Assembly (NCBI RefSeq): GCF_051487185.1
Contig: NZ_JAHVDK010000007.1
Span: forward strand, 158,241 to 190,240
Length of the DNA: 32,000 nt
Direction of reading: 5' to 3'
Source: Inquilinus limosus
GTDB taxonomy: Bacteria > Pseudomonadota > Alphaproteobacteria > DSM-16000 > Inquilinaceae
Shown here: positions 2 to 31,301 of the stretch, in pieces
How the letters are laid out: each line of letters opens with the position of its first letter
How positions within the stretch are numbered: the first letter of the stretch is position 1
Notes under the pieces: generated by a model
Told to the model about the DNA's origin: nothing
Database searches by the model: none
Seen by the model: the letters and a program-made list of their open reading frames with translations, nothing else
Translations under genes and position numbers: made by a program

Positions 2-154
<153 letters not shown>

Positions 155-3879: not shown

Positions 3880-3881
3880 GC

Positions 3882-6790: not shown

Positions 6791-6797
6791 CGTATCC

Positions 6798-7943
6798 TCA
6801 CTCCCGGTAGGGCTCGAGCACGAGATCGCGGCTGACCATCACCCGGATCGGGAAGGCCTGCCTGATCCTGATGGTCGGCGGAATGTCGAGATTCCGCCGC
6901 ACGACCTCCTGACCGACGTCGTTGAGGGTGTCGCTGCCGGCGCGCCGCAGCGCCTGCAGAATTTCGCTCTCGTCATTGCCGGCGCCGAGCTCGGTGCCGA
7001 CGCCGAGGATCGAGGACAGCGCCGCCGCGGCGAAGAGCCGGCCCCAATGGTGCTCCACCTCGTCCTCGAGCCCGGCATAGCCTTCCGTGTCCGCGCTGGG
7101 CAGCCGCTCCAGCACGATCGACCTGCCGTTCGGCAGGATGAGCCGGGTCCAGACCTGGAGCACACTGTCCTGGCCGAACGCCACCCGGCTGTCGTAGGTG
7201 CCGACCAGCAGCGACCCCTGTGGGATCAGGAGGAAGCGTCCGGTCGGGCTGTCGTACACGTGCTCCGTCACCCGGGCGATCACCTCACCCGGCCGGTCGG
7301 AGCGCAGGCCGGTGACGAGCGCCGCCGCGATGATGGAGCCGGCCTGCAGCACATAGGGCGACGGCGGATCCTGCAGCCGGTCCGAGCTCAACGTCCGGCG
7401 GTCGGGCGGAGCGTCCAGGAAAGCCTGCTCCCGATCCTGGGCACCATCGAATGCGGAAGCGGTTGCAGATACATCCGATGGCGCCGAGCCCCCTGCTCTC
7501 GCCGACTCCCCGATGCCTCCCTCCCTCTGGCCGGTGCCGACGAACAGCTTGCTGGTCCGCGCCGCCTCCTGCTCCTGGGCGATCCGCTGCAGCAGCGGAT
7601 CGGGGCCAGGCTGCAGCGGCGGGGTCACGGCCTTGCCCTGCTCCTGCGCCCGCAGGATCGGCCGGCCGAGATCCCCGGGGAGCGGTGGCCCCAGCTGCGG
7701 CACGCCGGTGTAGTCCGTCGGCAGTGCCGCCAAGCCATCGGTGGTGGTCTTCGTGTCGGTGCTGTAGAGCTCCTGCTGCGGCTCGGCCCGGCGGCGGCTG
7801 TCAAGCGCCCAGACCAGCGCGCCGAGCACGGCGAGGCCGGCCAGGCCGGCGGCGCCGACCAGCACCTTGCGTGACAGCCGGGTGACCCGCGGCCGCTCGG
7901 GATGCAGGCGCAGCGCCGCCTTGAGCTCGGCCTCGCCGGTCAT
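6798..7943 (-). CDS. trbI: conjugal transfer protein TrbI (VirB10 family)
   Basis: 381 aa. It has an N-terminal TM segment, a Pro-rich linker, and a conserved C-terminal domain (QAGSIIAAALVTGLRSDRPGEVIARV...IRIRQAFPIRVMV). Confidence 0.93.
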   Translation of the reverse strand: MTGEAELKAALRLHPERPRVTRLSRKVLVGAAGLAGLAVLGALVWALDSRRRAEPQQELYSTDTKTTTDGLAALPTDYTGVPQLGPPLPGDLGRPILRAQEQGKAVTPPLQPGPDPLLQRIAQEQEAARTSKLFVGTGQREGGIGESARAGGSAPSDVSATASAFDGAQDREQAFLDAPPDRRTLSSDRLQDPPSPYVLQAGSIIAAALVTGLRSDRPGEVIARVTEHVYDSPTGRFLLIPQGSLLVGTYDSRVAFGQDSVLQVWTRLILPNGRSIVLERLPSADTEGYAGLEDEVEHHWGRLFAAAALSSILGVGTELGAGNDESEILQALRRAGSDTLNDVGQEVVRRNLDIPPTIRIRQAFPIRVMVSRDLVLEPYRE

Positions 7944-15826: not shown

Positions 15827-16127
15827 CGTGATCCCCTCTCCTGGCGGCCGCACTACGCGGCCGGCGAGCTGGGATGATTAGAAGATGCAGAATCCGCCGG
15901 AACGCAACAAGCGGGACGGAAGCGTAGGGCTATAGCGTGGAAAGACAAGAGATCGACTGAGGCTCTGAAATCAGATCGACAGCGATGAAGCGAGCTGCCA
16001 GCCCCGTCTTACGCCGCGGGGAAGCGTGGATCGTCAGCGCCGGGGTCCTGTGAGCTCGATTGTCGATATCGGGCCTCAGCGACGAACACGTTTCAGCAGG
16101 ACAGCGGAGAATGTCGGCACACAATCG

Positions 16128-17519
16128 TTACGGTGAAAGCTCTTCAAGGATCCGACCCTTGGTTTCGATCGCGAACACAGCGGTCACAATTGCGCCAATG
16201 GCAAGCACGAGAGCGAAGGCTGCAAACACGAACTGGATGCCGGCATATCCCATCAGAGTGCCGACGATGATGGGACCGGAGGACGACCCAAGCCGAAGCC
16301 AGGCACTCCCGAGCCCGGTGCCGAGGGCCCGGAGCCGCGTCGGATAGAGCTCGGCCGAGTAGAGATAAAGGGAGAACGTGATCGTCTGAACGATGGCATA
16401 GGCCAAGCCAGCAAGTATGAGGACCTCTTCGGGGGAGGTGGCGCCGAGAACGGCAAGCGCAAGAAGCGGGATGGGCGCCGCAATGAAGGCCGCGGTGTAC
16501 CAGCGCTTCCGGCCAATCTTGTCGATCAGGAGCGCACAGCTGACAGAGGCGACCACGCCGGCCACTGAGGTCAGGAGACCGTAGAGGAGGCTCGTTTCCA
16601 ACGGCAGGTTGAAGGTCTGGCGGTACAGCGTCGGCAGCCACGCAATCATCCCATTGGCGACCAGATAGGAGCAGAACCACATGGCCCAAATGGTCAGGGT
16701 GCGGCGTCGATAGATTCCGGTGAACAGCTCTCGCCAATGCGAGCGGCCCGCCGTCCCCATGACGATCGGCTTCGGCTCAGCCAGTGTGTGGCCCGCGGCC
16801 GCCGCGCTCTTTTCCAAATCGGTGACAATCCGGTCGGCCTCATCGTAGCGGCCCTTGGAAGCAAGCCAACGCGGTGATTCCTTCATGAAGAAGCGGAGGG
16901 GAATGAGGATTGCGGCCGGCACGAGGCCGACTAGGAACATGGCCTGCCAGCCATAGACCGGCACAAGGGCCCGGGCGATCAGGCCGGCCCCGACCAAGCC
17001 GAGAAGGAACATCACTTCATAGAGCAGGAAAAAGCGGCCGCGCCCCTTCGAGCCGATGTACTCGTTGATGTAGGCACTCGCCACCGGCACTTCGCCGCCC
17101 GTACCGATGCCCTGGATGAAGCGGAACACCATCATGGACGCTGCCCCCCAGGCGAACAGGCAGGCGATGTCCATGCTCACGAAAAGCAGGATGGTGAAGA
17201 GGAGCACACTCAAACGACCGATGCGCTCTGCCAGCCAACCGAACAGGATCGCACCGAAAAGCTGTCCGACATAACCCATAGACAGGATCATGCCGGTCTG
17301 CTCGGGCTTCAGGCCCCATTCCTGAACCAGGACGGGCATAGCATAGGCAATTGCTATTACGGTGTAGCCATCGAAGAAGGTGGCTGCTCCGATAATGTTG
17401 CGTGTCCAGAAGACTCGCTTGGTGATCGGAAGACGCTCCAGACGGGCGCTGATATCTGCCTGGCCGTCGAGCGCGGTGGCTACGCGATCGTTCGGCCGTG
17501 ACGGCGCCTCCATAAGCAT
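16128..17519 (-). CDS. MFS transporter, sugar-porter-like metabolite:H+ symporter
   Basis: The ATG at 17519 is preceded by GGAGGA. The protein has 12-TM character, and the motifs GWLAERIGR and MKESPRWLASKGR resemble the PESPRWL signature. Confidence 0.88.
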   Translation of the reverse strand: MLMEAPSRPNDRVATALDGQADISARLERLPITKRVFWTRNIIGAATFFDGYTVIAIAYAMPVLVQEWGLKPEQTGMILSMGYVGQLFGAILFGWLAERIGRLSVLLFTILLFVSMDIACLFAWGAASMMVFRFIQGIGTGGEVPVASAYINEYIGSKGRGRFFLLYEVMFLLGLVGAGLIARALVPVYGWQAMFLVGLVPAAILIPLRFFMKESPRWLASKGRYDEADRIVTDLEKSAAAAGHTLAEPKPIVMGTAGRSHWRELFTGIYRRRTLTIWAMWFCSYLVANGMIAWLPTLYRQTFNLPLETSLLYGLLTSVAGVVASVSCALLIDKIGRKRWYTAAFIAAPIPLLALAVLGATSPEEVLILAGLAYAIVQTITFSLYLYSAELYPTRLRALGTGLGSAWLRLGSSSGPIIVGTLMGYAGIQFVFAAFALVLAIGAIVTAVFAIETKGRILEELSP

Positions 17520-17762
17520 TGCGTTTCCTCCAAGTTGAGATTCGTTGATTCTACTGAAGGGCTGTGATCTTTCGGGCGCGCCGGTGTTTCCGAGAGACCC
17601 TTTGCTCAAGCGGCCTCTGCGTTTCGAAGCCGGCAACAAGTCTCACGCACCAAGCTGACAGGATCTCAGCAGCGGAATTGGGCGTGCCTCATTCCATTTC
17701 GCTAGCCGATCTGCCGGAAGCGGTCCGGACCTGCAGTTCGGGACGCTTCCGGCCGGACGGCA

Positions 17763-18698
17763 TCAGGCGGCTTTGGCTTCGATCAGGCCGGCAGCTGTGA
17801 GCGCGGTCCGGATTTCCTCCTCAGCGCCCGGTCCGAGCGGCATGAGCGGCGAGCGGATGTGAGCCTCTCTAATGAGGCCTCGGGCCTTCAGCCCCAGCTT
17901 GAGGGCCACGGTGCCCTCCATGTGCGAACCACGATGATAGACGGCCTTGGTGACTGGGAGGAGCCGATCATGGAAGGCGCGTGCTGCGTTGTAGTCGCGC
18001 GCCTTGGCGGCGGCGAGATATTGGACCAGCGGCTCGGGCGCGAGGCTGCCGTACCCCACCAGAAGGCCATCGACGTCGAACATGGTCGGCAGCAGCCACT
18101 CGTCATGGCAGGACAGGATCTGCAGCTCCGGGAAAGCCTTGCGCAACTCGGGAATCTCCGTGTCCCACCGCTTCATGTTGCGCACGCCGTTCTTGGTGGC
18201 AATCACGCCCGGCTGGGCCGCAATCTCGAGTTGGGTTTGCAGATCGTAGGACGCCTTCGTGGCGTCTGGATACTGGAACAGGATGCACTGAAGCCCGGAG
18301 GCTTCGTGGATTGCCCTGTAGCGATCCTGCGGCGCGCCCTTCTGGTAGCCGAACCGCAGCCAGCCATGATTGGGATAGACGAGGGCCCCAGTGGCGCCTG
18401 CATCGGCGGCGCGCTTGGCTTCGATTGCGGCCACCTTCGTGCCCTCGCCGGTGATGCCGGCGATGATCGGAACCTTGTGCCCGGCTGCCTCCACATAGGT
18501 CCGGATGAGGGCGACCTGCTCATCTGAGGTCAGGAACGTGCCTTCGCCGGCATGGCCGAGAATCACGAGGCTCTTGACGCCTTCGATGGACGTCAGCCAG
18601 CGGGCCAGTGCTGCATTGGCTGGATGATCTACTGAACCGTCGGCGGCAAAGACCGTGACGGGCGCTGGGTTAATGCCACGCAAATTCATGATGGCCAT
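17763..18698 (-). CDS. dihydrodipicolinate synthase / N-acetylneuraminate lyase (DapA) family aldolase
   Basis: 311 aa. Supporting sequence: NPAPVTVF...ILGHAGEGTFLTSDEQ, VPIIAGITG, and a putative Schiff-base lysine in VIATKNG. Confidence 0.82.
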   Translation of the reverse strand: MAIMNLRGINPAPVTVFAADGSVDHPANAALARWLTSIEGVKSLVILGHAGEGTFLTSDEQVALIRTYVEAAGHKVPIIAGITGEGTKVAAIEAKRAADAGATGALVYPNHGWLRFGYQKGAPQDRYRAIHEASGLQCILFQYPDATKASYDLQTQLEIAAQPGVIATKNGVRNMKRWDTEIPELRKAFPELQILSCHDEWLLPTMFDVDGLLVGYGSLAPEPLVQYLAAAKARDYNAARAFHDRLLPVTKAVYHRGSHMEGTVALKLGLKARGLIREAHIRSPLMPLGPGAEEEIRTALTAAGLIEAKAA

Positions 18699-18745
18699 TG
18701 GTTTCTCTCCCTCGATGACCTGCTTGAGCCCGCTGACGGTCGTCT

Positions 18746-18781
18746 GGGAACGATTGCGGGAACGTTTGCAGTAACGTTCCC
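18746..18781. promoter_or_regulatory. candidate LacI-family operator array (three 12-mers)
   Basis: The three 12-mers are GGGAACGATTGC, GGGAACGTTTGC and AGTAACGTTCCC. The last two form the perfect 9-bp inverted repeat GGGAACGTT-N6-AACGTTCCC. The array lies in the divergent spacer between the aldolase and lacI-like genes. Confidence 0.6.
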
Positions 18782-18850
18782 GAGGTTGAGCTTGAGGCTT
18801 TGCTCGGTCAAGCGCTAAATGCTTGTGAAGAGTCCGAGAGGGAGAGAGGC

Positions 18851-19891
18851 GTGTTTCAGGATGCCGACGCGCAGGAACGGCTGGTCCGCGTCACGCTTCA
18901 TGACGTTGCCGCAGCTGCAGGCGTGTCCAAGTCCACGGTGTCGCGAATTCTCGACGAGCGGCTGCCGCGTTCGGATAGCGAGACCGCGCGACGTGTCAGG
19001 GAAATCGCGGCCAGGCTCGGCTACGTCCGTGATGTATCAGCCGCCAGTCTCCGGCGAGGCAAGACGAACACGATAGGCGTCATTGTCCCTCGCCTGACCG
19101 ATACCGTGATGGCCATGCTCTATGAAGCTCTGGCCCACGCCTGCGCCCGATCGAAGCGGTTCGCAATCGTCGCGACGACCGATGATCAGCCGAAAGCCGA
19201 CCGAACCGCTGCCCGCACACTGCTTCAGCGCGGGGTAGACGGCCTAGTTCTCTCGACAGCGAGGGAAGATGATGACTTCCCAAGCGAATTAGCTGACCTC
19301 GGCGTTCCGTACGTTCTTGCGCTGCGCACCGACGGCAAAAGCCTCTCGTCCGTGGGTGACGACCAGCTGGGTGGCTATCTCGCGACGCGGCATCTGCTCG
19401 ATCTCGGTCACCGCCGCATCGCGATCATTGCGGGCCCCACCTACGCGTCGAGCAGCCGCGGTCGCCTGGAGGGTTATCGCCGGGCTCTTGCGGAAGCGGG
19501 CGCGATTTCCGATCCGGCATTGATCGTGGAGTCCACATTCGGCATCGATTCCGGGGCCGTCGCAATGGAGCGCTTGCTGGAGTTGAACCCCTTGCCGACC
19601 GCAGTCTTCGCGGTCAATGACAACACGGCGATTGGTGCGCTTTCCGCGATCGCCAGGATGGGGCTGCCCGTTCCAGAGGCCATATCAGTCGTCGGATACA
19701 ACGATATTCCGCTGGTGAGCCGCCTTCCTGTTCCCCTCACGACCGTGCGTGTTCCGTTCGACCAGATAGCCGTTGCCGCCCTTGAGCTTCTTTCCGATGG
19801 TCCGGCATCGGACAACTGCCGGATCAGGGTCGCCACACCAACTCTCATCCCCCGGAGGTCGACGGCAAGTCCTCGGGCGGACGCAGACTGA
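18851..19891 (+). CDS. LacI-family transcriptional regulator
   Basis: HTH is VTLHDVAAAAGVSKSTVSRILD, followed by a periplasmic-binding-fold body (IGVIVPRL..., AVFAVNDNTAIGAL). The track ORF starts at TTG 18800. GTG 18851, after GGGAGAGAGG, is my preferred start but is uncertain. Confidence 0.88.
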   Translation: MFQDADAQERLVRVTLHDVAAAAGVSKSTVSRILDERLPRSDSETARRVREIAARLGYVRDVSAASLRRGKTNTIGVIVPRLTDTVMAMLYEALAHACARSKRFAIVATTDDQPKADRTAARTLLQRGVDGLVLSTAREDDDFPSELADLGVPYVLALRTDGKSLSSVGDDQLGGYLATRHLLDLGHRRIAIIAGPTYASSSRGRLEGYRRALAEAGAISDPALIVESTFGIDSGAVAMERLLELNPLPTAVFAVNDNTAIGALSAIARMGLPVPEAISVVGYNDIPLVSRLPVPLTTVRVPFDQIAVAALELLSDGPASDNCRIRVATPTLIPRRSTASPRADAD

Positions 19892-20001
19892 CATGCACCG
19901 TGGTGGGTATGGCGCACCCGAGATTCTCATCTTAGATCCGAAGCCGAGGCAAAGGAGCTAGGTCGCTACAACTAACGGCTTCGAGGAGGAACTGATCGTC
20001 C

Positions 20002-20461: not shown

Positions 20462-22444
20462 TCACAGCCTGATGCCGTCGTCGGGGTCCATCGCCGCCTG
20501 TCGGGCGGCCACGCGCATGGCCCGCCGCACCGCCCTCGCCTTCACGGCCTCATCGTCCGGCTCGTCCTCGAGATCGGCGAATTCTCTCACTGACTCGGCC
20601 GCCTCTGGCGAGATGGCCTCGTGCTCGGGCAGCATCGGCTCGCGACGGATGCCGCCATTCGCCGGATCCTCTGTACTGTCCCCAGCGCGTTCGGTCGCAG
20701 CCGATCCGTTGCCTGGAGGCACACTCCAATCGCTGGCGCCGACCGCTGCTTCCTTCGGCGCCAGCGAAAGCTCTGGTGGTGGCGACAGAACCCGGCGGGC
20801 GAGGCGCGGATCCTCATAATAGCGAACCTTGCGGGCCTGGATCGGCGGCATGCCGGAGACGAGCACGAGCTCCTCCGTCGGTGGCAGTTGCATTACCTCC
20901 CCCGGCGTCAGCAGCGGCCGGGCTGTCTCTTGCCGGGAGACCATCAGGTGTCCGAGCCAGGGCGACAGCCGATGGCCGGCGTAGTTCTTCATCGCCCGGA
21001 GCTCGGTCGCGGTACCAAGAGCATCGGAGACGCGCCGGGCCGTTCTCTCGTCATTGGTCGCGAAGGCGACACGGACATGGCAGTTGTCGAGGATCGAGTT
21101 GTTCGGCCCGTAGGCTTTCTCGATCTGGTTCAGCGACTGGGCGATCAGGAAGCTCTTCAGGCCGTAGCCGGCCATGAATGCGAGCGCGCTCTCAAAGAAA
21201 TCCAGCCGCCCGAGTGCCGGGAATTCGTCCAGCATCAGGAGCAGGCGATGGCGCCGACCCGCCGGTTCCAGCTGCTCGGTCAAGCGGCGGCCGATCTGGT
21301 TCAGCACCAGTCGGATAAGGGGCTTGGTCCGGCTGATATCGGACGGTGGCACCACGAGATAGAGCGTGGCCGGCCGGTCGCCCTCGACCAGATCGCCGAT
21401 CCGCCAGTCACAGCGCGCCGTCACCGCCGCCACGACAGGATCTCGGTAGAGGCCGAGGAAGCTCATCGCCGTCGACAGCACGCCGGAGCGCTCATTGTCG
21501 CTCTTGTTGAGGAGCTCGCGCGCCGCCGAGGCCACGACCGGATGCGGCCGGCCGCCGAGATGCCGCGTCGTCATCATCGCGCGCAGGGTGCTCTCGATCG
21601 GCCGCCTCGGATCGGACAGGAAGCCCGCGACGCCGGCGAGGGTCTTGTCCGGCTCGGCGTAGAGGACGTGGAGGATGGCGCCGACCAGAAGGCTGTGGCT
21701 GGTCTTCTCCCAATGATTGCGGCGCTCGAGCGCCCCTTCCGGATCAACCAGGATGTCGGCGATGTTCTGGACGTCGCGGACCTCAGCGTCGCCGCGGCGG
21801 ACTTCGAGCAGCGGATTGTAGGCGGTCGAGCCCTGATTGGTCGGATCGAACAGCAGCACGCGGCCGAAGCGGGCGCGCCAGCCGGCGGTGAGCTGCCAGT
21901 TCTCCCCCTTGATGTCGTGTACGATGGCGGCGCCGGGCCAGGTCAGCAGCGTCGGCACGACGAGGCCGACGCCCTTGCCGCTGCGGGTCGGGGCGAAGCA
22001 GAGGACGTGCTCCGGCCCATCGTGGCGGAGGTACTCCCCCTCGAAGCGGCCGAGCACGACACCATCGGCCCCGAGCAGGCCGCCCTCGCGGATCTCCTCC
22101 CCTGTCGCCCAACGGGCCGAGCCGTAGGTCGAAGCCTCCTTCGCCTCGCGCGCCCGCCACACCGACATGCCGATCGCGATCCCGATCGCGGCGAAGCCGC
22201 CGACGGTCGCGATCAGCCCGGCCTCGATGAACAGGCCAGGCGCATAGGCGTCGTACCAGTACCACCACCAGAACAGTGCCGGCGGCGGATAAAGCGGCAC
22301 GCCGCCGAGCTCGGCCCAGGGACTGCCGAGCTCGGGTTGGTAGCCGAGCCGCCAGGCGGCCCACTGGGTCGCGCCCCAGACGGAGGCGAGCACCACCGCG
22401 AACACGACGACGATCTGGCCCCAGAGGATCTTGGTTCCCGACAT
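20462..22444 (-). CDS. traG: type IV coupling protein TraG (VirD4 family)
   Basis: The ATG at 22444 gives MSGTKILWGQIVVVFAVVL. Walker A is APTRSGKGVGLVVPT, plus LLMLDEFPALG. About 660 aa. Confidence 0.95.
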   Translation of the reverse strand: MSGTKILWGQIVVVFAVVLASVWGATQWAAWRLGYQPELGSPWAELGGVPLYPPPALFWWWYWYDAYAPGLFIEAGLIATVGGFAAIGIAIGMSVWRAREAKEASTYGSARWATGEEIREGGLLGADGVVLGRFEGEYLRHDGPEHVLCFAPTRSGKGVGLVVPTLLTWPGAAIVHDIKGENWQLTAGWRARFGRVLLFDPTNQGSTAYNPLLEVRRGDAEVRDVQNIADILVDPEGALERRNHWEKTSHSLLVGAILHVLYAEPDKTLAGVAGFLSDPRRPIESTLRAMMTTRHLGGRPHPVVASAARELLNKSDNERSGVLSTAMSFLGLYRDPVVAAVTARCDWRIGDLVEGDRPATLYLVVPPSDISRTKPLIRLVLNQIGRRLTEQLEPAGRRHRLLLMLDEFPALGRLDFFESALAFMAGYGLKSFLIAQSLNQIEKAYGPNNSILDNCHVRVAFATNDERTARRVSDALGTATELRAMKNYAGHRLSPWLGHLMVSRQETARPLLTPGEVMQLPPTEELVLVSGMPPIQARKVRYYEDPRLARRVLSPPPELSLAPKEAAVGASDWSVPPGNGSAATERAGDSTEDPANGGIRREPMLPEHEAISPEAAESVREFADLEDEPDDEAVKARAVRRAMRVAARQAAMDPDDGIRL

Positions 22445-22591
22445 GTCGCACCTTGCGAGAAGCACCGCACAGGCGATGTCGGGAAGCCCGGTCGCAAGGC
22501 AACCGCCGAAAGCCCGCCGTCGCACATACGGCGAACCCATCGCGCGAAGACAGGTTCTGTGCGGAGCACCCAGGGGAGGAACCTCGCCACC

Positions 22592-24322
22592 TCAGATCCC
22601 GAGCCCCCGTTTGCGCTCCAAGCTCCAGTCAACGCCGCCATCGGCCCGTACAACCCCGGAGACTTCCTGTCCGAGGCGCCGCTTCAGCGCCGGCGACCAG
22701 GGCACCAGGCTGAAGCCGAGGCCGTCGTCGATCATAGCGAAGCGGCCGGAGGCGAGGTCGAGCCGTCGGCGATAGATGCCGCCGACCGGATCGCCGGCGG
22801 CCGCCCCGGATCGCGGCAGGCCGGTCTCCGAGGCCAGCGCCGCCGCGGCAGCATCGAGTTCGCGTCGGCGCAGCGTGGCGAGGAGGTCGCGGGCGAAGAC
22901 CACCCGCTGTCCCCGCCGGCGCGCCAGCCCGTCCTCGGCGAGCCGCTCGATCCGCGCCTCCAGGGCTGTGCGGACTTCGGTGCCGAAGCCGCCCTCCGAC
23001 AACGTCGCCGGCTCGCGCGCGACGAGATGGCGGTCGAGCCAGGTCGCGCCACGGGCGCCGACCTGCGCCTGGATGTCGAGATCCGAGCGTGTGATCAGCT
23101 CCGCTCTCCCCGCCCGGATCTCGACCATTCCGCCGAGCGGCGGCGTGTGCTCGAGCGCGCTGAGGTCCGCGAGACGGAGATGGTGGACCCGGCCGTCGAT
23201 CCCGTCGATGACCGCATAGGCTGTGCCGGCGAGTTCGTCGTGCAGGCCCTGGTCGACGAGGCGCCCTATCACGGGAATCGTCATCCCCGCCCCGTGGATG
23301 ACGTAGTCGCCGAGCGCCCGCTCCGTCCCCTGCTCGGCCAGGCTGCAGTGCATCGTGCGGATGATATCGCCACGGTCGCCGAGCTCGCGCAGCGTCCGCT
23401 CGGCCTCGGCACCGACCACCCATTGGGCCGGGCCGGCAGGCACCGTGAGCCCCATCCGCTCCAGCCGTTGCAACCGGCCGATCATCAGCCGGCGGAGATC
23501 GGACGCGTCGTCGCCGGAGCCCGTGGGCCGCAGGTCGACGAAGCCTTCCTCGTCCACCATGCGGCGGATCTCCGTGTCGAGCCGGGTCCAGCGCTCGGCC
23601 TCGACCTCCCGCTCCAGTCCGAGCTGCACCGCATGCTCCGGCTTCGGGCCGAGCTCGAGCGTGACCAGCGCCTCGGCCCGCGCCCGCAGGCCGCGGCTGA
23701 TGTAGTCGCGGGCGATGACAAGGTCGCTGCCGTCCTCGGCGATACCGCGGACCAGGAGGTGGACGTGCGGATTGTCAGTGTTCCAGTGGTCGACCGCGAT
23801 CCAGTCGAGCCGAGTGCCGAGGTCGCGCTCCATCTGCGCCGCCAGGTCCCGGGTAAAGGCCCGGAGGTCGGTCATCTCCGCCGCATCTTCCGGCGAGACG
23901 ATGAACCGGAAATGATGCCGGTCGTCCCGGCAGCGGGCGGCGAAGGCGGCGTCGTCCGCCGCATCGCTGCGGGCGTCGAACATGTGGGCCTTCTCGCCGT
24001 CCCAGGTGACGCCCTCGCGCCTCAGATAGGCGAGGTGAGCGGTGATGGGCGCCGAGCGGAAGGCCGGCCCCTTGTGCCGGACCACCCGGGCCTTGACGAC
24101 CACGCGCCGCCCGGGCGCAAAGAGCCGCTCGCGGCTGAAGGCGAGCCGTCCGCGGCCGAAACCCGACCGGCTCGGCTGCGGCAGCCGGGGTGAGCGCGGC
24201 CCGACATGCCCGCTCTTCTGCGCCGCCTTCAGCACCTGGGCGATGAATGTCGGCCGGCGGCCACCGCCGCGGCTGCGGATCCGGCCCAGCCGGATACGGA
24301 GATCGTCGTCAGGCGTGCCCAT
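22592..24322 (-). CDS. relaxase/mobilisation nuclease (MOBP-like, with DUF3363-type C-terminal region)
   Basis: 576 aa. Supporting sequence: FRIR-type N-terminus MGTPDDDLRIRLGRIRS, ITAHLAYLRREGV, and the histidine motif DHWNTDNPHVHLLV. Confidence 0.9.
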   Translation of the reverse strand: MGTPDDDLRIRLGRIRSRGGGRRPTFIAQVLKAAQKSGHVGPRSPRLPQPSRSGFGRGRLAFSRERLFAPGRRVVVKARVVRHKGPAFRSAPITAHLAYLRREGVTWDGEKAHMFDARSDAADDAAFAARCRDDRHHFRFIVSPEDAAEMTDLRAFTRDLAAQMERDLGTRLDWIAVDHWNTDNPHVHLLVRGIAEDGSDLVIARDYISRGLRARAEALVTLELGPKPEHAVQLGLEREVEAERWTRLDTEIRRMVDEEGFVDLRPTGSGDDASDLRRLMIGRLQRLERMGLTVPAGPAQWVVGAEAERTLRELGDRGDIIRTMHCSLAEQGTERALGDYVIHGAGMTIPVIGRLVDQGLHDELAGTAYAVIDGIDGRVHHLRLADLSALEHTPPLGGMVEIRAGRAELITRSDLDIQAQVGARGATWLDRHLVAREPATLSEGGFGTEVRTALEARIERLAEDGLARRRGQRVVFARDLLATLRRRELDAAAAALASETGLPRSGAAAGDPVGGIYRRRLDLASGRFAMIDDGLGFSLVPWSPALKRRLGQEVSGVVRADGGVDWSLERKRGLGI

Positions 24323-24524
24323 TGCCGATCACCTCAGAAGCTGCTCCAAGCACAGTGCTGCGAAGGGCATTGATCCGATTGAGAAATCCCCCTGCGACAG
24401 CACTCCAAAAAACTGCATGGCCGCAAAAATATCAGCCGGATCAAAGGCTTACCCATCCACCAGCCACACCCTTTTATCTCGCCGTAGCTCAAAAGTTGTT
24501 TTCACTCTCTCGGATACGCAACTC

Positions 24525-24560
24525 GTAGTAGTAGGATATCGCAGCCCGTCGGGCTGCATC
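24525..24560 (-). other. candidate oriT (inverted repeat plus nick-core-like sequence)
   Basis: The - strand reads GCAGCCCG-A-CGGGCTGC followed directly by GATATCCTAC. It lies in the 334-bp lower-GC spacer upstream of the relaxase gene. Confidence 0.45.
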
Positions 24561-24656
24561 GCGGTGTTGGGCCAGTACCCGCCCGGCAGCGCTGCTGAGC
24601 GCTGAATGCAGAAGGCGGGAGCGGCACCCTGGGCACCGCCCCCGCCGTGGAGAGGC

Positions 24657-24941
24657 CTAGTCGATGAGAGCGAGCCGCTTCTGGGCGGTCAGGATCTCGA
24701 CGACGGTGGAGCTGTCGCGGGCCTCACCCTTCAGCTTGGCGGCGTGATCCCAGGGCCCGAGATTCTCGACCACATCGTCGAAGTTGTCCTCCTCATCGTA
24801 GTCCGGACCGGGCAGGTAGAGCGGCGCCCGCTTGCACGCCGCGATGGCGTTCTCGAGCCGGCGGATGAGGGCGAAGGCCTCCCGCCGATCATGCCAGTAG
24901 GCGTCGGTGCCCGGGATGAGACGGGATGATGCGATGGTCAT
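24657..24941 (-). CDS. hypothetical small protein (94 aa, acidic central patch)
   Basis: The ATG at 24941 lies 7 nt after AAGGAG and gives MTIASSRLIPGTDAYWHDRREAF...PDYDEEDNFDDVVENLGPWD. I recognise no family. Confidence 0.6.
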   Translation of the reverse strand: MTIASSRLIPGTDAYWHDRREAFALIRRLENAIAACKRAPLYLPGPDYDEEDNFDDVVENLGPWDHAAKLKGEARDSSTVVEILTAQKRLALID

Positions 24942-25238
24942 CGGAACGCTCCTTGGTTGACGTCCTCCGCGTCGAGGACGTGTCCCGGGCTCGGCCGGCG
25001 GAGCGGCCGTCAAGGACGCCGGAGGCGCCGCGGAGCGGGGCGTGGGGGAGCCGAAATGCGTCAGCATTTCGGGGGGACCACGCCTCCTTGACGGGCGTTT
25101 CGTCCCGGCTGACAGGATGAGACGACCGAGACGAGAGAGGGGTTGGAGCAGGCCTCTCCAGGTGCGTCGGTCAGTCGCCGGATGGCGGGCGCGACGCTCG
25201 ACGAACGCCGCGCCCGATGCGCTTGGAGCTGTCTGCGA

Positions 25239-25436
25239 TCAGCTTTCCGGATGCCGATAGGCTGCAGCACGGCGGCGCCGCGGTCGCGTGTCGAACAGCG
25301 CGTCGAAGGCGCGGTCGAGCTCCGCCTGGCGGGCGATCGCCTGCGCGAGCTCGGTCTCGGCCGCACTCCGCTCGCGGCGGGTCAGATGGCAGTGGAGCAA
25401 CTCGGCCTCGAGCTCGCGGATGTGGTCGTGGAGCAT
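25239..25436 (-). CDS. hypothetical small coiled-coil protein (65 aa)
   Basis: The ATG at 25436 follows GGAGAGG and gives MLHDHIRELEAELLHCHLTRRERSAAETELAQAIARQAELDRAF. The upstream part of track ORF 25239..25622 looks non-coding. Confidence 0.5.
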   Translation of the reverse strand: MLHDHIRELEAELLHCHLTRRERSAAETELAQAIARQAELDRAFDALFDTRPRRRRAAAYRHPES

Positions 25437-25709
25437 GGTCCTCTCCGTCCCAAGTCTGAAGACGGGAGGTGCGACGCATGCCGGGACGGGCCGGGTCGTG
25501 GATCGCCGCAGGCGACCGGCTGGCCGGCGAGCGGGGGAGCCGATTTTGTCGAGCGGGACGACAGACCGGCGCGCGCAGCGCGCACCTTGCGCTCGGCAAA
25601 ATTGGGGGGACCGCTCGTCCACGACGCGGCCCGTCCCGGCATGGGAGAGTGGGCGATCCGAAGAGACGGCCTTTCTCTCCGATGGGGCTCCGTCGGTGCC
25701 GCCGCGCCA

Positions 25710-26357
25710 TCAAGGTGTCGACTTCCGCGCCGTGCTCACCGGGACGAACAGGCCGCCGGCCGACGACGGCCGGAATGCCGCCCCTCGGCCGGTGCCATGC
25801 AGGTCGACGAACAGGCTGACGGTGGATGCGATCGCGGTCAGACGCTGCCGTGCCACGTCCGCATGGCCGAAGGCCGCGAGATAGGCCTGCGTCTCGGCCG
25901 GCAGAGCCCGGCCCTCCGACAGGTGCTCGTCCATATGCCGCGGGCCGGCATTGTAGGCAGCGAACAGGCCGGGATAGCCGTAGCGGTCGTGCATCTCGCG
26001 GAGATAGGCGGCGCCGGCCTGGATGTTGTCGCGCGGATCATAGGGATCGGCACCGAAGCCGTAGCGGCCGCGCAGTTCGGCCCAGGTCTCGGGCATGATC
26101 TGCATCAGCCCCATGGCGCCCTTCGACGAGACGGCATGCGAATCGCCGCCGCTCTCAACCCGCATTACAGCGCGGATCCATGACTCCGGCACGCCGAAGC
26201 GCCGCGATGCCTCGGCGATGTTGGCCGACCAAAGGTCTTGCGCCCTCGCTGCGATGCTGCTCGCGAGCTCGGCACGGACAGGGATCGCCCATGTGCAGAC
26301 ACAGAGCAGGATGGCTGCGGCCAACCGGCCCCGGCGATGGCTGCCGATCGGCGTCAT
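25710..26357 (-). CDS. lytic transglycosylase (SLT domain)
   Basis: It has a signal-like N-terminus and the SLT motifs VMRVESGG, GLMQIMP and AAYNAGP. Confidence 0.9.
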   Translation of the reverse strand: MTPIGSHRRGRLAAAILLCVCTWAIPVRAELASSIAARAQDLWSANIAEASRRFGVPESWIRAVMRVESGGDSHAVSSKGAMGLMQIMPETWAELRGRYGFGADPYDPRDNIQAGAAYLREMHDRYGYPGLFAAYNAGPRHMDEHLSEGRALPAETQAYLAAFGHADVARQRLTAIASTVSLFVDLHGTGRGAAFRPSSAGGLFVPVSTARKSTP

Positions 26358-26872
26358 CGCCGTCCCTCATATGTCCAGAGCGGCGCCGCGCGGCCGACGA
26401 TCGAGGCGACCGGCACAGGCCCGAAATACCGCCCGTCGAGCGAGTCCGGGACGCCCCGGTTCATGAGGAAGACCTCACGGTCGCCGAGCAGCCGGCAGCC
26501 CTGCCAGACGGGCAGCGTCCGGCCGAGCCGATCGCGCCCGAGCGCCCGTCCGACGGCGACGCCGTCGATCAGGATCCGGAGACCATCGCGGCAGATGGTG
26601 CTGCCCGGCAGCGCGGCGACGCGCTTCAGCAGCGGCACGCCGGCCGGCAGGTAGCCGCGATCGGCGAAGAGCGGGACGAGCGCGGCCGGCGCCCGCGCGA
26701 GCACGATGTCGCCGACGGCGAGACGGTCAACTGTGTGCACGCGGTAGAACCCGACCGGCAGGCTCGCCGAGGCGTTCCAGACGAGGCGCGGCACCGGCGG
26801 GCCGACCGCTGGGCCTGCGATCAGACTCACTCCGGCGAGCATCGCGGCCAGAACAGCGATACGCGCCCTCAT
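26354..26872 (-). CDS. traF: S26-family signal peptidase, conjugative TraF type
   Basis: 172 aa. Supporting sequence: VWNASASLPVGFYRV, LLKRVAALPG, and DSLDGRYFGPV. Confidence 0.88.
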   Translation of the reverse strand: MRARIAVLAAMLAGVSLIAGPAVGPPVPRLVWNASASLPVGFYRVHTVDRLAVGDIVLARAPAALVPLFADRGYLPAGVPLLKRVAALPGSTICRDGLRILIDGVAVGRALGRDRLGRTLPVWQGCRLLGDREVFLMNRGVPDSLDGRYFGPVPVASIVGRAAPLWTYEGRR

Positions 26873-27333
26873 GCTTCGATCCTCCGGCGCTTGAGCCAGG
26901 CGGCATGCCGCTCACGGCTGTAGGGCCGCGGCTCGAAGCCGGCGCTGAGGCGGTTGTGGACGTGCCGCCAGTGATCCGGCGCCGCGTCAGCCGGATCGAT
27001 CCGGAGCGCCAGGACCGCGTCGATCGCCTGCAGCACGTGCTCGATCTTCGGCCAGCCGGACTGGCGGAGCAGGATCTCGGCGCCGGGCCGCACATGCGGC
27101 ACCGTCGCGCAGCCCTCGCCCGGCGCCACCGCTCGCAGGATGTCGATGCGCGAAACCCCGGTGCCGAGATCGGTCGCAGCCCAGCGCAGGACGGCGAAGA
27201 CGCTGCCGGGCGCGAAGGACAGGACGCGCCGATGCTGATCGACGGCCGCCTCCGCGACCGGCCGGCCGAAGCGGAGCCAATGCTCGATCCGCCGGTGCAG
27301 CCGCAGCAGCTCGAGTCGGGTGAGATCGCTCAT
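26869..27333 (-). CDS. DUF2840 domain protein
   Basis: 154 aa. Its sequence (MSDLTRLELLRLHRRIEHWLRFGRP...) and its position between the RHH/ParA genes and traF match the conserved backbone gene as I recall it. Confidence 0.7.
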   Translation of the reverse strand: MSDLTRLELLRLHRRIEHWLRFGRPVAEAAVDQHRRVLSFAPGSVFAVLRWAATDLGTGVSRIDILRAVAPGEGCATVPHVRPGAEILLRQSGWPKIEHVLQAIDAVLALRIDPADAAPDHWRHVHNRLSAGFEPRPYSRERHAAWLKRRRIEA

Positions 27334-27554
27334 GATGCGTCTCCGGTCTCGTCGGATGCGGGGAAGTGCCGCGCGAGCAGGTCGCGCAGCAGATCGGCGA
27401 CGGTGACGCCCTGGCGGTAGGCCGCGATCTTGATGCGGCCGCGCAGCTCCGGGGTGACGTCGATGGTGAGCCGGGCGGTGAAGGGTCTGCGCGCCTCCGG
27501 TGCCCGGATCCAGGCTTCTGGGCTGCGCGGCCGCTTGGCGAACGGCCGGCTCAT
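27330..27554 (-). CDS. ribbon-helix-helix protein (ParG/CopG-like partner of ParA)
   Basis: 74 aa. RLTIDVTPELRGRIKIAAYRQGVTVADLLRDLLARHF is an RHH pattern. It overlaps the parA stop by 4 nt. Confidence 0.72.
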   Translation of the reverse strand: MSRPFAKRPRSPEAWIRAPEARRPFTARLTIDVTPELRGRIKIAAYRQGVTVADLLRDLLARHFPASDETGDAS

Positions 27555-28189
27555 GGCATCAGCCTCTCGATCTCGGCGGCGAGCATGCGGATCTCGCGGA
27601 CGGCGATCCGGCTGCGCGGGAACTCGCCGACGAGGCGGCCGCTGCGGGCGGCGTCGGCGAAGGCGACGCGCTGGCCGATGCGCACGGCGAGCGCCGGCGG
27701 GTCGGCCCTGGCGAGCGACATCGCGGTGTCGTGCGCGATCACAGTGCCGGCACCGCAGCGGTTCAGCAGGAACCGCGCCAGCAAGTCGGGCCGGAACTGC
27801 CGCGCCTCCTCGAGCAGCCGGAGCGTCTCGGCCGAGGCCCAGCCGTCGAAGGGCGAAGGCTGGACCGGGATCAGCACGAGGTCGGCAGCGAGCAGCGCCG
27901 AGCGCATCAGCGCGGCGACGCGCGGCGGCCCGTCGATGACGATGTGGTCGACGCCGCGGGCGATTTCCGGCGCCTCCCGGTGCAGCGTGTCGCGGGCGAG
28001 GCCGATGACGCCGAAATGTCGCGGCCGGCCGGCCCGCGCCCGCTGCTCGGACCAGTCGAGCGCCGAGCCCTGCGGGTCGGCGTCAATGACGGTGACGCGC
28101 CGGCCCTGGCGGGCCCACTCGCCGGCAAGGTGCAGGGCGAGCGTGGTCTTGCCGACGCCGCCCTTCTGGTTGAGCAGCGCCACGATCAT
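27551..28189 (-). CDS. parA: ParA-family partition ATPase
   Basis: It has the deviant Walker A MIVALLNQKGGVGKTT, plus VIDADPQGS and IVIDGPP. Confidence 0.93.
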   Translation of the reverse strand: MIVALLNQKGGVGKTTLALHLAGEWARQGRRVTVIDADPQGSALDWSEQRARAGRPRHFGVIGLARDTLHREAPEIARGVDHIVIDGPPRVAALMRSALLAADLVLIPVQPSPFDGWASAETLRLLEEARQFRPDLLARFLLNRCGAGTVIAHDTAMSLARADPPALAVRIGQRVAFADAARSGRLVGEFPRSRIAVREIRMLAAEIERLMP

Positions 28190-29229
28190 GGCGGGCCTCG
28201 ACGGGCAGCGACGGCTGCACTCCGGAGCGCACCATCATCAATGTTAGAGTTTTCTAAGTTAGACTCTAAGTTACGGGCGCCGATCTCGTTGGCAGACCAA
28301 AGACTTAGCTGGGTTCCGTGCGCCTGATGTACCGATAGCGCCGCGCCCGAAGTACCGATACCCGCTGCGCCCGATGTACCGAGTGCAGTCACAGGCTTAT
28401 CCACCGATTCTGTGGATAAGTCGGGGCCTCCGGTGGGTATAACCCATAGCAGGCCGCCCGCCTCGAAAACCAGCCGATAGCCGGGCAGCGGCTGGCGGGC
28501 GGCGATACGGCGGAGGTCGAGGGCGAAGTCGGACAGCCGGGCCAGGCTGCCGGACTTGGCGTGGAGATGGCGGACCTCGAAGGCCCAGCCCGAGGGCTGT
28601 CGGCCGGCATGCTTGCGGGCGACCCGGTAGAGCCAACGCTCGATCCCGCCCGTCAGCCGGAAGTACGCCGGGTCGATGGTCAGCACCAGCGAGCGGTCCA
28701 GCACGCCGCGGTAGAACCAGTCCGGCAGCACGAATTCCATGCCGCGGCAGCGGCCGAAGCCGTCGACCAGCTCCTGCCATTCGCCGATCCAGGAGAACTG
28801 GTGCCGGCGCCAGTTGGGACCCTGGCGGATCGTGGTCAGCACCACGGTCGACTGCAGCCGCTGCAGCGCCGCCTTGAGGAGCCGGTATTGGCGGAAGCCG
28901 GTGTCCCGGCCGGTCGCCCGCAGGATCTGGTACGGCGTGAAGCGCAGGAAGCGCGAGGTGCGGAGGCCATGATCAGCAGCCTCGACGATCTGGGTCGCGG
29001 CCCAGATCAGGATGTCGGCGTCCCAGATGGTCGCCATGCCGTGCTCCGGCACGGCGTAGATCTGCACTTCCGTCTCACCGGCCTGATAGAGGATCGGCCG
29101 GGTGCGCCGGCCCTTGGCCAGCGAGAAGAAGGGCCGCTCCATCAGGTCGCGCTGGTCGCGCGGGCTGACGCCGTCCCCGGGCAGCGCCACGAAAGGATCG
29201 AGTGTTGCCCGCTCGGGGAGACTGGTCAT
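28186..29229 (-). CDS. repA: replication initiator protein A (RPA family)
   Basis: 347 aa. Supporting sequence: RDLMERPFFSLAKGRRTRPILY, ATIWDADILIWAATQI, and ERWLYRVARKHAG. The stop shares ATGA with the parA start. The C-terminal tail is encoded by repeat-rich DNA. Confidence 0.88.
   Translation of the reverse strand: MTSLPERATLDPFVALPGDGVSPRDQRDLMERPFFSLAKGRRTRPILYQAGETEVQIYAVPEHGMATIWDADILIWAATQIVEAADHGLRTSRFLRFTPYQILRATGRDTGFRQYRLLKAALQRLQSTVVLTTIRQGPNWRRHQFSWIGEWQELVDGFGRCRGMEFVLPDWFYRGVLDRSLVLTIDPAYFRLTGGIERWLYRVARKHAGRQPSGWAFEVRHLHAKSGSLARLSDFALDLRRIAARQPLPGYRLVFEAGGLLWVIPTGGPDLSTESVDKPVTALGTSGAAGIGTSGAALSVHQAHGTQLSLWSANEIGARNLESNLENSNIDDGALRSAAVAARRGPP
28253..28273. repeat. tandem TCTAAGTTA repeats (12-bp period) in an AT-rich island
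   Basis: TCTAAGTTA occurs at 28253-28261 and 28265-28273, and TTAGA/TCTAA inverted arms lie at 28244-28257. This is the only AT-rich patch in the area and sits just upstream of the parA start. Confidence 0.6.
28326..28385. repeat. three iteron-like direct repeats (GA[T/A]GTACCGA, 23-24 bp period)
   Basis: GTACCGA occurs at 28329-28335, 28352-28358 and 28376-28382, each with the shared flank (C)CGA[T/A]. Confidence 0.6.
28396..28420. promoter_or_regulatory. inverted pair of DnaA-box-like sequences
   Basis: The sequence is CTTATCCAC-N7-GTGGATAAG. The + strand reads TTATCCACC (28397-28405, 8/9 to the consensus) and the - strand reads TTATCCACA (28411-28419, 9/9 to the TTATCCACA consensus). Confidence 0.55.
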
Positions 29230-29522
29230 CGTCCCCTCCCCGGCTCGGGGCGATCGGCGTATTGCGGTGCCACCGCGGCGTGGCGCTTGGCCGGCAGCAC
29301 GGTGTCGGTGCCGGGATCCGAGGTAGAGCGCTTGGCGCCGCGGTCGGCCCAGGCCTGAAGGTCCTCGATGGTGTAGACGACGCGGCCGCCGATCTTGCGG
29401 TATCGCGGGCCGGTGCCGTAGGTGCGGTGCTTCTCCAGAGTTCTGCCGGACAGGCCGAGGAAACGCGCGGCCTCGGGCGTCCGGAGAAAGCGCGGCGGCA
29501 TTCCGGCCAGAGGGTCAGGCAT
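29226..29522 (-). CDS. helix-turn-helix DNA-binding protein, excisionase/MerR-like (possible recombination directionality factor)
   Basis: The ATG at 29522 gives MPDPLAGMPPRFLRTPEAARFLGLSGRTLEKHRTYGTGPRYRKIGGRVVYTIEDLQAWA, an HTH_17-type pattern. It is the first gene of an ATGA-coupled chain. The ATG at 29501 is an alternative start. Confidence 0.72.
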   Translation of the reverse strand: MPDPLAGMPPRFLRTPEAARFLGLSGRTLEKHRTYGTGPRYRKIGGRVVYTIEDLQAWADRGAKRSTSDPGTDTVLPAKRHAAVAPQYADRPEPGRGR

Positions 29523-29619
29523 GGTCGGGCTCCGTGATCTTCGGGAAGGCCGCCGGACAGGGCGGCCGGTCGAAGGCCACGGTGGCGAAGCGCCGCCGCG
29601 CGGGCGGATGGCGAAGACC

Positions 29620-29642
29620 GGGGTGGCGACAATCGCCACCCC
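29620..29642 (-). terminator. GC-rich hairpin after the DUF2285 gene (terminator-like, no clear U-tract)
   Basis: GGGGTGGCGA-caa-TCGCCACCCC is a perfect 10-bp stem. It lies 9 nt downstream of the stop at 29651. Confidence 0.4.
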
Positions 29643-29650
29643 GGCTGCTT

Positions 29651-30193
29651 TCAGCGTCGGGGCCCGAGCAGCCGGCGATAGCCGCCGCGCATCAGGGCCA
29701 GGCCGGAGCGGACGAGACGGATGGTCCGGTCCCGGATCGACGAGGTCTTCCAGCTTTCCTCGCAGACGCGGTCGGCGCCGAACAGCACTTCGGCGATCTC
29801 GCGATAGCTCGCGCCCTCCGACCGTCCGTCGAGGGCGCGGAGCGACGCGACAAGGCGCGCCCGTCGCTGCGTCGGCAGGATCGGCGGAGCCTGTGGTCGT
29901 CCCTCGCGAAGCAGACGCCAGAAGCGAAGCGTCGCTTCGGCTCGAAACGGTGCTGTCACGTCCAGCGAGAGGGCCGCATCAACGGTGGTGCCGCGGGCCG
30001 GAGGCCCCGGCAGCCAGAGGCGATGCGTGCTGCGGCCATCGCGCAGCAGCAGATGCAGGCCATCCGCGCTCCGGCGTTCGGCAACGGCGCCGAACCAGGC
30101 GTCGGGATCGAAGACGATGGCGTCGGTCGGAGGATCAGGGAGGGAGGGGGTCAGAATCACCGTGCGGACGTGCAGCTCGGGCAGCCAGAACAC
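29651..30193 (-). CDS. DUF2285 domain regulator, C-terminal portion of a split gene (frame is open up to 30235)
   Basis: The C-terminal block is SLRALDGRSEGASYREIAEVLFG...GGYRRLL. The track start is a GTG with no obvious RBS. The upstream in-frame sequence reads PFLADPRRRASEQPVFWLPEL. Confidence 0.75.
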   Translation of the reverse strand: MFWLPELHVRTVILTPSLPDPPTDAIVFDPDAWFGAVAERRSADGLHLLLRDGRSTHRLWLPGPPARGTTVDAALSLDVTAPFRAEATLRFWRLLREGRPQAPPILPTQRRARLVASLRALDGRSEGASYREIAEVLFGADRVCEESWKTSSIRDRTIRLVRSGLALMRGGYRRLLGPRR

Positions 30194-30416
30194 AGGCTGC
30201 TCGGAGGCACGCCGGCGCGGATCCGCCAGAAAAGGTCAGCCCCCAGCGCCGGGCGAGGTACGCAACCTCGGCCTCGGGGCCGAGAGCCTCCTTCCCCTGC
30301 GCGCGCTCGTAGTCGCTCCGATACTCCGGATACCGCCGCAACGCCTCCCAGGCGAAGTCCGGGGCATCCAGATTGGAGTCGTAGGCGGCCCGTGACCGCC
30401 AGTCGCCATGTGGCAT
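30135..30416 (-). CDS. DUF6499-like N-terminal portion of the split DUF2285 regulator
   Basis: The ATG at 30416 follows GAGGGAG and gives MPHGDWRSRAAYDSNLDAPDFAWEALRRYPEYRSDY...ARRWGLTF. After that the frame yields an Ala/Arg-rich tail that looks non-native. Confidence 0.7.
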   Translation of the reverse strand: MPHGDWRSRAAYDSNLDAPDFAWEALRRYPEYRSDYERAQGKEALGPEAEVAYLARRWGLTFSGGSAPACLRAACVLAARAARPHGDSDPLPP

Positions 30417-30498
30417 GACGTCTCCCTCGGTCCGGCATCATCAACGATGCACCGGCCGCATCTTGGGAGAAGTTTCCTGGCTGAGAAGTCCTCGCAAC

Positions 30499-30514
30499 GG
30501 CATCACGTGATGCC
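30499..30514. promoter_or_regulatory. perfect 16-bp palindrome GGCATCACGTGATGCC upstream of the split regulator gene
   Basis: Read directly from the sequence. It lies 83-98 bp upstream of the ATG at 30416. A looser copy, GGCATCA-N5-GATGCACC, sits at 30434-30453. Confidence 0.5.
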
Positions 30515-30608
30515 GATTGCGTGCACAGCCGACTCCGCGCCTCGCCTCAAAGCTGCAAGTGCGACGATGTGACTCTCCGGAAATCCGGTTCTCCGGATCG
30601 GCGGCGGG

Positions 30609-30863
30609 TCAGCCTTTGCGCAGGAGCTCGCGATAACCTTGGGCGCTGAGCCAGCGGGCCCGGGCGAGATGGCTCTCATGGCATTTGCGGACGCGCTCCG
30701 GATCCCGCTCGGGATCGAGGCCGAGCACAATCCTGGCGACCTCGCGCCAGTCTGCCGCCTCTTCCGCCGCGTCGAGCAGCCGGAGATAATCCACCAGATG
30801 CTCCCGGTCGTAATCGGTCAGCTCGTCGCCGGTCGGCGCCGTATCGGCAAACGAAGGAGCCAC
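30609..30863 (-). CDS. stand-alone DUF2285 domain protein (QseM-like candidate antiactivator)
   Basis: 84 aa with a GTG start after GAGGGGG. LVDYLRLLDAAEEAADWREVARIVLGLDP...AQGYRELL parallels the C-terminal domain of the neighbouring DUF2285 regulator. Confidence 0.7.
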   Translation of the reverse strand: MAPSFADTAPTGDELTDYDREHLVDYLRLLDAAEEAADWREVARIVLGLDPERDPERVRKCHESHLARARWLSAQGYRELLRKG

Positions 30864-30990
30864 TCGTCCCTACCCCCTCATCGGGTCCGCAGTGTCAGCC
30901 GCCGGACAATATGCCCTACAATTAGCGGGGCTGTCACGGCCGTAGCAGATCTGGCTTGCCGGTCGTCGATCAGCGAAGCCGGCTAATGTA

Positions 30991-31015
30991 GACTATAGTC
31001 CGTGGTTCGATAGTC
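30991..31015. promoter_or_regulatory. candidate operator: palindrome GACTATAGTC plus an extra ATAGTC half-site
   Basis: A perfect 10-bp palindrome lies at 30991-31000 and GATAGTC at 31009-31015. Both are 23-47 bp upstream of the XRE gene start. Confidence 0.4.
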
Positions 31016-31037
31016 AACAGACGGCTTGTCTGCATGC

Positions 31038-31262
31038 ATGGACATGCGCAAGCTGGTGGCCCGCAACCTCAAGAAATTCCGCATCGACGCGGACCTGTCT
31101 CAGGAGGAGCTGGCAGAGCAGTCCGGAGTCGATCGCACGTACATCAGTGGGATCGAGCGCGGTGTCCGCAATCCAACAATCGTCATGCTTTGGCAAATCG
31201 CGTCCGTATTGAAGATCGAGCCTTGGCAACTGATCCATCCGGACTCGACGGCAGACGAGTGA
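31038..31262 (+). CDS. XRE-family helix-turn-helix repressor (QseC-like candidate)
   Basis: The sequence (MD)MRKLVARNLKKFRIDADLSQEELAEQSGVDRTYISGIERGVRNPTIVMLWQIASVLKIEP is an HTH_3 pattern. The track ORF starts at TTG 31026; ATGs lie at 31038 and 31044. Confidence 0.85.
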   Translation: MDMRKLVARNLKKFRIDADLSQEELAEQSGVDRTYISGIERGVRNPTIVMLWQIASVLKIEPWQLIHPDSTADE

Positions 31263-31273
31263 AATGAGAAGAC

Positions 31274-31301
31274 CCGCCGATCCGCGAATGCGGATCGGCG
31301 G
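31274..31301. terminator. strong hairpin between the convergent XRE and DUF932 genes
   Basis: CCGCCGATCCGC-gaat-GCGGATCGGCGG is a perfect 12-bp stem. The flanks are AAAA on the + side and a T-containing stretch on the - side. Confidence 0.5.

Follow-up and report, generated by a model that had tools for sequence, protein, structure and literature searches.

A probable split FseA-family activator gene with a predicted UUU_U +1 frameshift site in an Inquilinus limosus conjugative element

Results

Overlapping DUF6499 and DUF2285 reading frames

The window, a stretch of 32,000 nucleotides from Inquilinus limosus, carries on its minus strand two overlapping open reading frames (ORFs), which can be joined by a change of frame at a run of four T residues (T4). 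The ORFs, the two parts of the proposed gene and the elements of the putative frameshift site are as follows.

30416..30135, minus strand: ORF1, 93 aa, DUF6499 domain
30193..29651, minus strand: ORF2, 180 aa, DUF2285 domain
30231..30416, minus strand: fseA part 1 (msi172-like), 0-frame codons 1-62 (M1 to F62), DUF6499 with the motif AWEALRRY
29651..30229, minus strand: fseA part 2 (msi171-like), +1 frame, L63 to R254 plus stop, comprising a conserved ADP...FWxP stretch, a middle domain and a DUF2285 HTH domain
30230..30233, minus strand: putative slippery sequence UUU_U, Phe62 codon at 30233..30231, skipped base 30230
30240..30245, minus strand: UGGGGG (Trp58-Gly59), a G-rich Shine-Dalgarno-like sequence 6 nt upstream of the shift codon

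The minus strand at the switch point reads CGC TGG GGG CTG ACC TTT TCT GGC, with 6 nt between the GGGGG tract at 30240-30244 and the T4 run (plus-strand positions 30230-30233). Conceptual translation with base 30230 skipped gives a fusion of 254 aa (62 plus 192 aa), and the unshifted 0 frame runs into a stop at 30135, 31 codons past the shift, giving the 93-aa product. In the +1 frame, which is open from 30235 onward, a TGA occupies 30238-30236, and the first ATG, GTG or TTG of the open part is the GTG at 30193. The coordinates of the ORFs, the T4 run, the G tract, its 6-nt spacing and the length of the fusion had all been given in a first-pass annotation of this DNA, and all match the sequence. 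A Pfam search matched residues 5-62 of ORF1 to PF20109 (DUF6499; E 4e-16), a match that stops right at the shift codon, and ORF2 to PF10074 (DUF2285; E 2e-33). Among the predicted tryptic peptides, WGLTFLADPR spans the fusion junction and WGLTFSGGSAPACLR derives from the 0 frame.

The two reading frames as probable parts of one protein

A database search with the fusion returned 877 homologues. The five nearest (78-95% identity) are all annotated as DUF2285-only proteins of 169-180 aa, indicating that their genes are split as at the present locus, and many remoter homologues (40-51% identity) are single ORFs of approximately 250-265 aa that contain both domains and align with 93-100% query coverage. 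Homologues from alphaproteobacterial plasmids (H1, H2, H5, H8 and H9) are listed as separate DUF6499 and DUF2285 proteins. Over its full length the fusion aligned with 35 single-ORF homologues (40-50% identity), without a gap at the junction, where the single-ORF proteins read, for example, RRWGLAFLADPQ or RRWGLRFLADPN and the window encodes RRWGLTF/LADPRRR. In this alignment W58, G59 and P66 are invariant, as are E24, L26, R27 and R28 of the DUF6499 motif, and conservation at R57, F62 and D65 is 90% or higher. Since no start codon precedes D65 and P66 in the open part of the +1 frame, these two residues are reachable from ORF1 only.

An AlphaFold2 (AF2) model of the fusion had a pLDDT of 90.4 and a pTM of 0.88, with a pLDDT of 95 for residues 51-80, and its sole significant match in the PDB was the single-chain RovC (6XZ5; E 8e-9, 247 columns). 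The sequence match of the fusion to RovC likewise spans the junction, and the fusion is thus modelled as a single RovC-like fold. RovC, the type VI secretion activator of Yersinia, shares the overall fold and domain order, but it is encoded by a single ORF without a frameshift, has a type VI secretion system and not an integrative and conjugative element (ICE) under its control, and is only 19% identical. The earlier proposal that the two ORFs are halves of one protein is borne out by the colinear, gap-free alignment with single-ORF DUF2285 regulators and by the one-fold model matching RovC.

The alternative that no recoding takes place, and that a 93-aa DUF6499 protein and a 180-aa DUF2285 protein starting at GTG 30193 act in trans, is improbable, although it agrees with the gene calls of annotation pipelines and a non-covalent interaction of this kind exists, in that QseM binds DUF6499 in trans (PMC10359603). 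The conserved residues from the ADP motif through FW precede GTG 30193 in the +1 frame, where no start codon gives access to them, and no Shine-Dalgarno-like sequence was seen just before this GTG. Counted from the Trp, the 0-frame tail of relatives is anywhere from 7 to 135 codons long, and thus no conserved peptide. Moreover, msi172-msi171, the two-ORF counterpart in Mesorhizobium, activates PrdfS at 0.8% of the level of the fused gene, consistent with a required shift (PMC4755241). The two ORFs are almost certainly one gene, encoding an FseA-family activator of mobile-element transfer that requires a +1 ribosomal frameshift.

The putative frameshift site in the window

In Mesorhizobium, translation of msi172-msi171 is described as yielding FseA through a +1 shift in which tRNA-Phe moves from UUU to UUC, with 4-13% efficiency at UUUC and a conserved G-rich region upstream; ribosomal frameshifting was attributed from protein products in E. 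coli and from lacZ fusions, and FseA homologues were found to be widespread in both single-ORF and two-ORF forms (PMC4755241). Among 4709 curated FseA homologues, approximately 61% have two ORFs with a conserved +1 site, and the conserved WGL next to the shift is encoded by the ribosome-binding-site-like UGGGGG (PMC10359603).

In the window, UUU_U permits full +1 re-pairing of tRNA-Phe, and the 0-frame A-site codon is the sense codon UCU (Ser). Codon usage counted in 13 genes of the window (4797 codons) showed that UUU makes up 4.4% of Phe codons, UCU 3.6% and UCC 20% of Ser codons, and GGG 16% of Gly codons. Re-pairing from UUU to UUU would bring no gain in anticodon pairing, unlike the move from UUU to UUC for the anticodon GAA, so the efficiency of the shift could differ from that at the tested UUUC site or be very low. 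The UGGGGG sequence, which also codes for the conserved Trp-Gly, may stimulate the shift, perhaps by pairing with 16S rRNA and pausing the ribosome; its spacing of 6 nt, and not the 3 nt that stimulates +1 shifts in prfB, counts against such a role. No 3′ stimulatory RNA structure was found when 30130-30260 of the minus strand was folded (z = -0.8 relative to shuffles), and no relevant match was found in Rfam. Among the four closest sequences, which differ by too few changes to tell the frames apart, synonymous and non-synonymous counts in the overlap were 6 and 11 in the 0 frame, and 9 and 8 in the +1 frame.

The description of this site as prfB-like holds in part. As in prfB, a P-site tRNA would shift +1 on a re-pairable codon of the N-UU_U type, with a GGGGG Shine-Dalgarno-like tract upstream, and UUU_U itself is used in a minority of RF2 genes (PMC5009743). 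In prfB, however, only 3 nt separate the stimulating Shine-Dalgarno element from the shift codon, and the A site is occupied by a UGA stop (PMC5009743), which senses the level of RF2; in the window the spacing is 6 nt and the A-site codon is UCU. The prfB shift also serves autoregulation and is efficient, whereas that of FseA reportedly acts as a throttle of low efficiency (4-13%).

Conservation of the site among relatives

Related loci (L001-L083) comprised 80 genome loci plus three from the closest relatives, and each was sorted by the frame that encodes the conserved x-x-[D/N]-P after the Phe, four being left unclassified. Among the resulting 80 classified loci (79 plus the window), 67 require a +1 shift at this very Phe codon, none requires a -1 shift, and the other 13 are single ORFs; the same split at the same codon in 67/80 loci is far more than chance would produce. 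The Phe codon is TTT in all 55 unique frameshift-type sites and in 4/13 single-ORF sites (p 1.5e-8, relatedness ignored), and the Gly codon is GGG in 47/55 and 4/13, respectively (p 2e-4, relatedness ignored). The skipped base is C in 50 of the 55 unique sites and U (T) in the other five, namely the site shared by the window and L081, the site shared by L082 and L083, and those of L014, L022 and L063. By its sequence, the predicted site in the window is thus the minority UUU_U variant of the conserved site. Where single-ORF relatives read TTC CTG GCT GAT CCC, the window reads TTT T CTG GCG GAT CCG.

The T4 run is kept in the three close relatives L081-L083 (78-95% protein identity), which were obtained independently of one another, from the Inquilinus sp. 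Marseille-Q2685 genome, a JGI metagenome and an SRA assembly. It is kept even though the next codon varies between TCT and TCC and a 6-nt indel lies upstream.

The proposal of an FseA-like +1 shift of tRNA-Phe on T4 is accordingly supported by the conservation of both the split and the site, and by the published family, but the suggestion that the locus is an independent example did not hold: UGGGGG (encoding WG), the 6-nt spacer and UUU match the published site UGGGGG-N6-UUU, with U in place of C at the skipped base only, and it is the same site with no independent invention. The expectation that the A-site codon be rare was right for UCU in the window but fails as a general feature of the site, as the codon is UCC in the closest relatives L082 and L083 and CGC, the commonest Arg codon, in 20 of the 55 unique sites.

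A homopolymer error in sequencing or assembly, or a recent inactivating 1-nt insertion, would make the true gene a single ORF with T3 or a pseudogene. Deleting one T does restore a perfect single ORF, T4 is a homopolymer, and single ORFs are genuine in 13 of the 80 classified loci. However, the T4 run recurs in three independent assemblies despite the nearby differences, which leaves very little likelihood of an error or a recent pseudogene; nor would a frameshift mutation arising at random fall on the conserved site of the family, where 67 loci need a +1 and none a -1 shift at the same codon, and where the rare TTT is found in 55/55 frameshift sites. Productive slippage of RNA polymerase usually needs runs of around seven or more. 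The least probable explanation, that the polymerase drops one U on the T4/A4 run to leave an in-frame mRNA, would give an identical product from a homopolymer site, but the run is just 4 nt, 50 of the 55 unique family sites are TTTC with three identical bases only, and the published case was ascribed to ribosomal frameshifting (PMC4755241).

Genetic neighbourhood and a candidate FseA box

The genes around the split gene resemble the partners of FseA in ICEMlSymR7A, and are listed here with the transfer genes and a candidate binding site.

20462..29229, minus strand: transfer genes repA, parA, RHH, DUF2840, traF (S26 peptidase), SLT transglycosylase, DUF3363 relaxase and traG coupling protein
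29226..29522, minus strand: RdfS-like winged-HTH excisionase (HTH_17; PF12728; RdfS PDB 8DGL, E 1.3e-10)
29610..29637, minus strand: candidate FseA box GGCGAT-N16-TTCGCC, in the intergenic region between fseA and the rdfS-like gene
30609..30863, minus strand: QseM-like antiactivator, 84 aa, a lone DUF2285 domain (PF10074, E 2.5e-8; QseM PDB 7UQT, E 2.8e-20)
31026..31262, plus strand: QseC-like Xre-type HTH regulator (HTH_3, E 1.9e-16; also by synteny), divergent from the qseM-like gene

The RdfS-like gene is the first of a co-directional transfer operon and lies downstream of fseA in 76/79 loci, and the QseM-like gene lies directly upstream of fseA on the same strand. The gene order qseC, qseM, fseA, rdfS, repA recurs in most related loci. 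The transfer genes at 20462..29229 likely form the fseA regulon, and further conjugation genes of the trbB/E/L/F/I type are present in the window. A QseM-like gene was found 300-900 nt upstream on the same strand at 59/62 frameshift-type fseA genes compared with 3/13 single-ORF ones (Fisher p 9e-8, phylogeny ignored); the ten single-ORF loci without QseM are nine Caulobacter-like or unassigned Pseudomonadota MAGs and one Thiobacillus. The intergenic regions that flank the qseM-like gene span 30417-30608 on the fseA side and 30864-31025 on the qseC side. The only sigma-70-like promoter match lies upstream of the qseM-like gene (30937-30908, minus strand), so transcription of fseA may continue from qseM or start at a promoter that the scan did not recognise.

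In published work the FseA box is given as GGCGAA-N16-TTCGCC, with a spacer of N15/16 (PMC10359603 supplement). Searching with the published hexamers identified the candidate box, where earlier conservation and inverted-repeat scans anchored on TTCGNCAYC had given a muddled result. It is the sole match of at least 11/12 on either strand of the 32-kb window and lies 88-115 nt upstream of the chosen rdfS ATG, and scores of at least 11/12 were obtained for 17/61 related upstream regions compared with 3/1220 shuffles. Just past the fseA stop, a perfect 12-nt palindrome at 29618-29644 (arms CCGGGGTGGCGA and TCGCCACCCCGG, with 3 nt between them) overlaps the left hexamer of the candidate box, and could belong to an operator or, although it has no T tract, form a terminator-like hairpin. 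More copies of TCGCCA are present at 29609-29614 and 29583-29588.

Two other parts of the window differ in content from the conjugation genes. Between the trbB-like and traG genes, the stretch at 16000-20000 has a GC content of 60-63% compared with approximately 71% in its flanks and encodes an MFS transporter, a DHDPS-family enzyme and a LacI-type regulator; it is probably cargo inserted in the conjugation backbone. Beyond trbI, positions 1-6800 encode a BKACE enzyme, a short-chain dehydrogenase, an FAA hydrolase and a LysR regulator, with a GC content of 57-60% at 4000-6000, and are either ICE cargo or flanking chromosome. A plasmid origin was considered and rejected: no plasmid record covers at least 80% of a 2.1-kb query (29200-31300), and the matches are only family members with 68-76% identity.

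Discussion

The locus is very probably the fseA gene of an ICE of the ICEMlSymR7A type, whose full-length product would be made by a +1 shift at UUU_U, as judged from its sequence and by analogy with the Mesorhizobium system. With FseA of ICEMlSymR7A (Mesorhizobium japonicum/loti R7A; Ramsay et al. 2015) it shares the DUF6499 and DUF2285 domains, the +1 direction and position of the shift after WGL-x-F, the UGGGGG-N6-UUU architecture, the QseM-, QseC- and RdfS-like partners and an FseA-box-like inverted repeat with a 16-bp spacer, and the two elements share a conjugation backbone of traF, SLT, DUF3363 relaxase, traG and trb genes.

Several features set them apart. The skipped base is C in R7A (UUU_C) and U here (UUU_U). 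In R7A, fseA follows traI2 under TraR control and is convergent with qseM, with rdfS elsewhere, whereas in the window fseA sits immediately between qseM, which precedes it on the same strand, and rdfS, which follows it; unlike in ICEMlSymR7A, neither traR nor traI was found among the genes examined in the window, nor a tra-box near fseA. The DUF6499 motif AWEFLRRN of FseA is AWEALRRY here, with Ala in place of Phe34, and an F34A mutant of FseA has reduced QseM binding (PMC10359603). This AWEALRRY is encoded at 30339-30362 (minus strand; FseA residues 22-29), and the Ala is also present in L081 and L082, with Ser in L083.

From these features and from published work on the Mesorhizobium element, we infer the following mechanism. 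Ribosomes would start at 30416 and translate the DUF6499 domain first, and most would stay in the 0 frame to 30135, releasing a 93-aa product without the DNA-binding domain. In a minority, the peptidyl-tRNA-Phe on UUU (30233..30231) would re-pair one base on with UUU (30232..30230), probably aided by the UGGGGG 6 nt upstream and, in the present copy, by the rare UCU in the 0-frame A site. Decoding would then continue with CUG GCG GAU CCG to give the 254-aa activator, with ...RRWGLTF-LADPRRR... at the junction. With only this minority yielding activator, the frameshift would throttle translation and so hold the activator at low levels. This 254-aa protein, which is probably dimeric, would bind the candidate box at 29610-29637 and switch on the rdfS-like gene and the repA-parA-traF-relaxase-traG operon, leading to excision and transfer, and the QseM-like protein would block the activator by binding its DUF6499 domain.

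The bias of qseM-like genes towards frameshift-type loci fits a pause at UGGGGG-N6-UUU that would let QseM capture the nascent DUF6499 domain, an idea raised, without comparative support, in PMC10359603. It is a speculative suggestion, and on balance a doubtful one, that frameshift and antiactivator form a coupled pair or, with a smaller chance, that the UUU_U/UCU shift is sensitive to the supply of the UCU-reading tRNA-Ser.

The fseA gene described here is an un-annotated, routine member of a well-characterised recoded family, and with this locus a known recoding site gains a further natural variant of the UUU_U form, while no new question is opened. FseA genes are systematically mis-annotated (PMC10359603), and the present 'DUF6499 protein' and 'DUF2285 protein' are to be merged as one recoded gene, join(30416..30231, 30229..29651) on the minus strand. 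Annotation in this form would mark the region as the switch controlling a conjugative element that is related to the Mesorhizobium symbiosis island.
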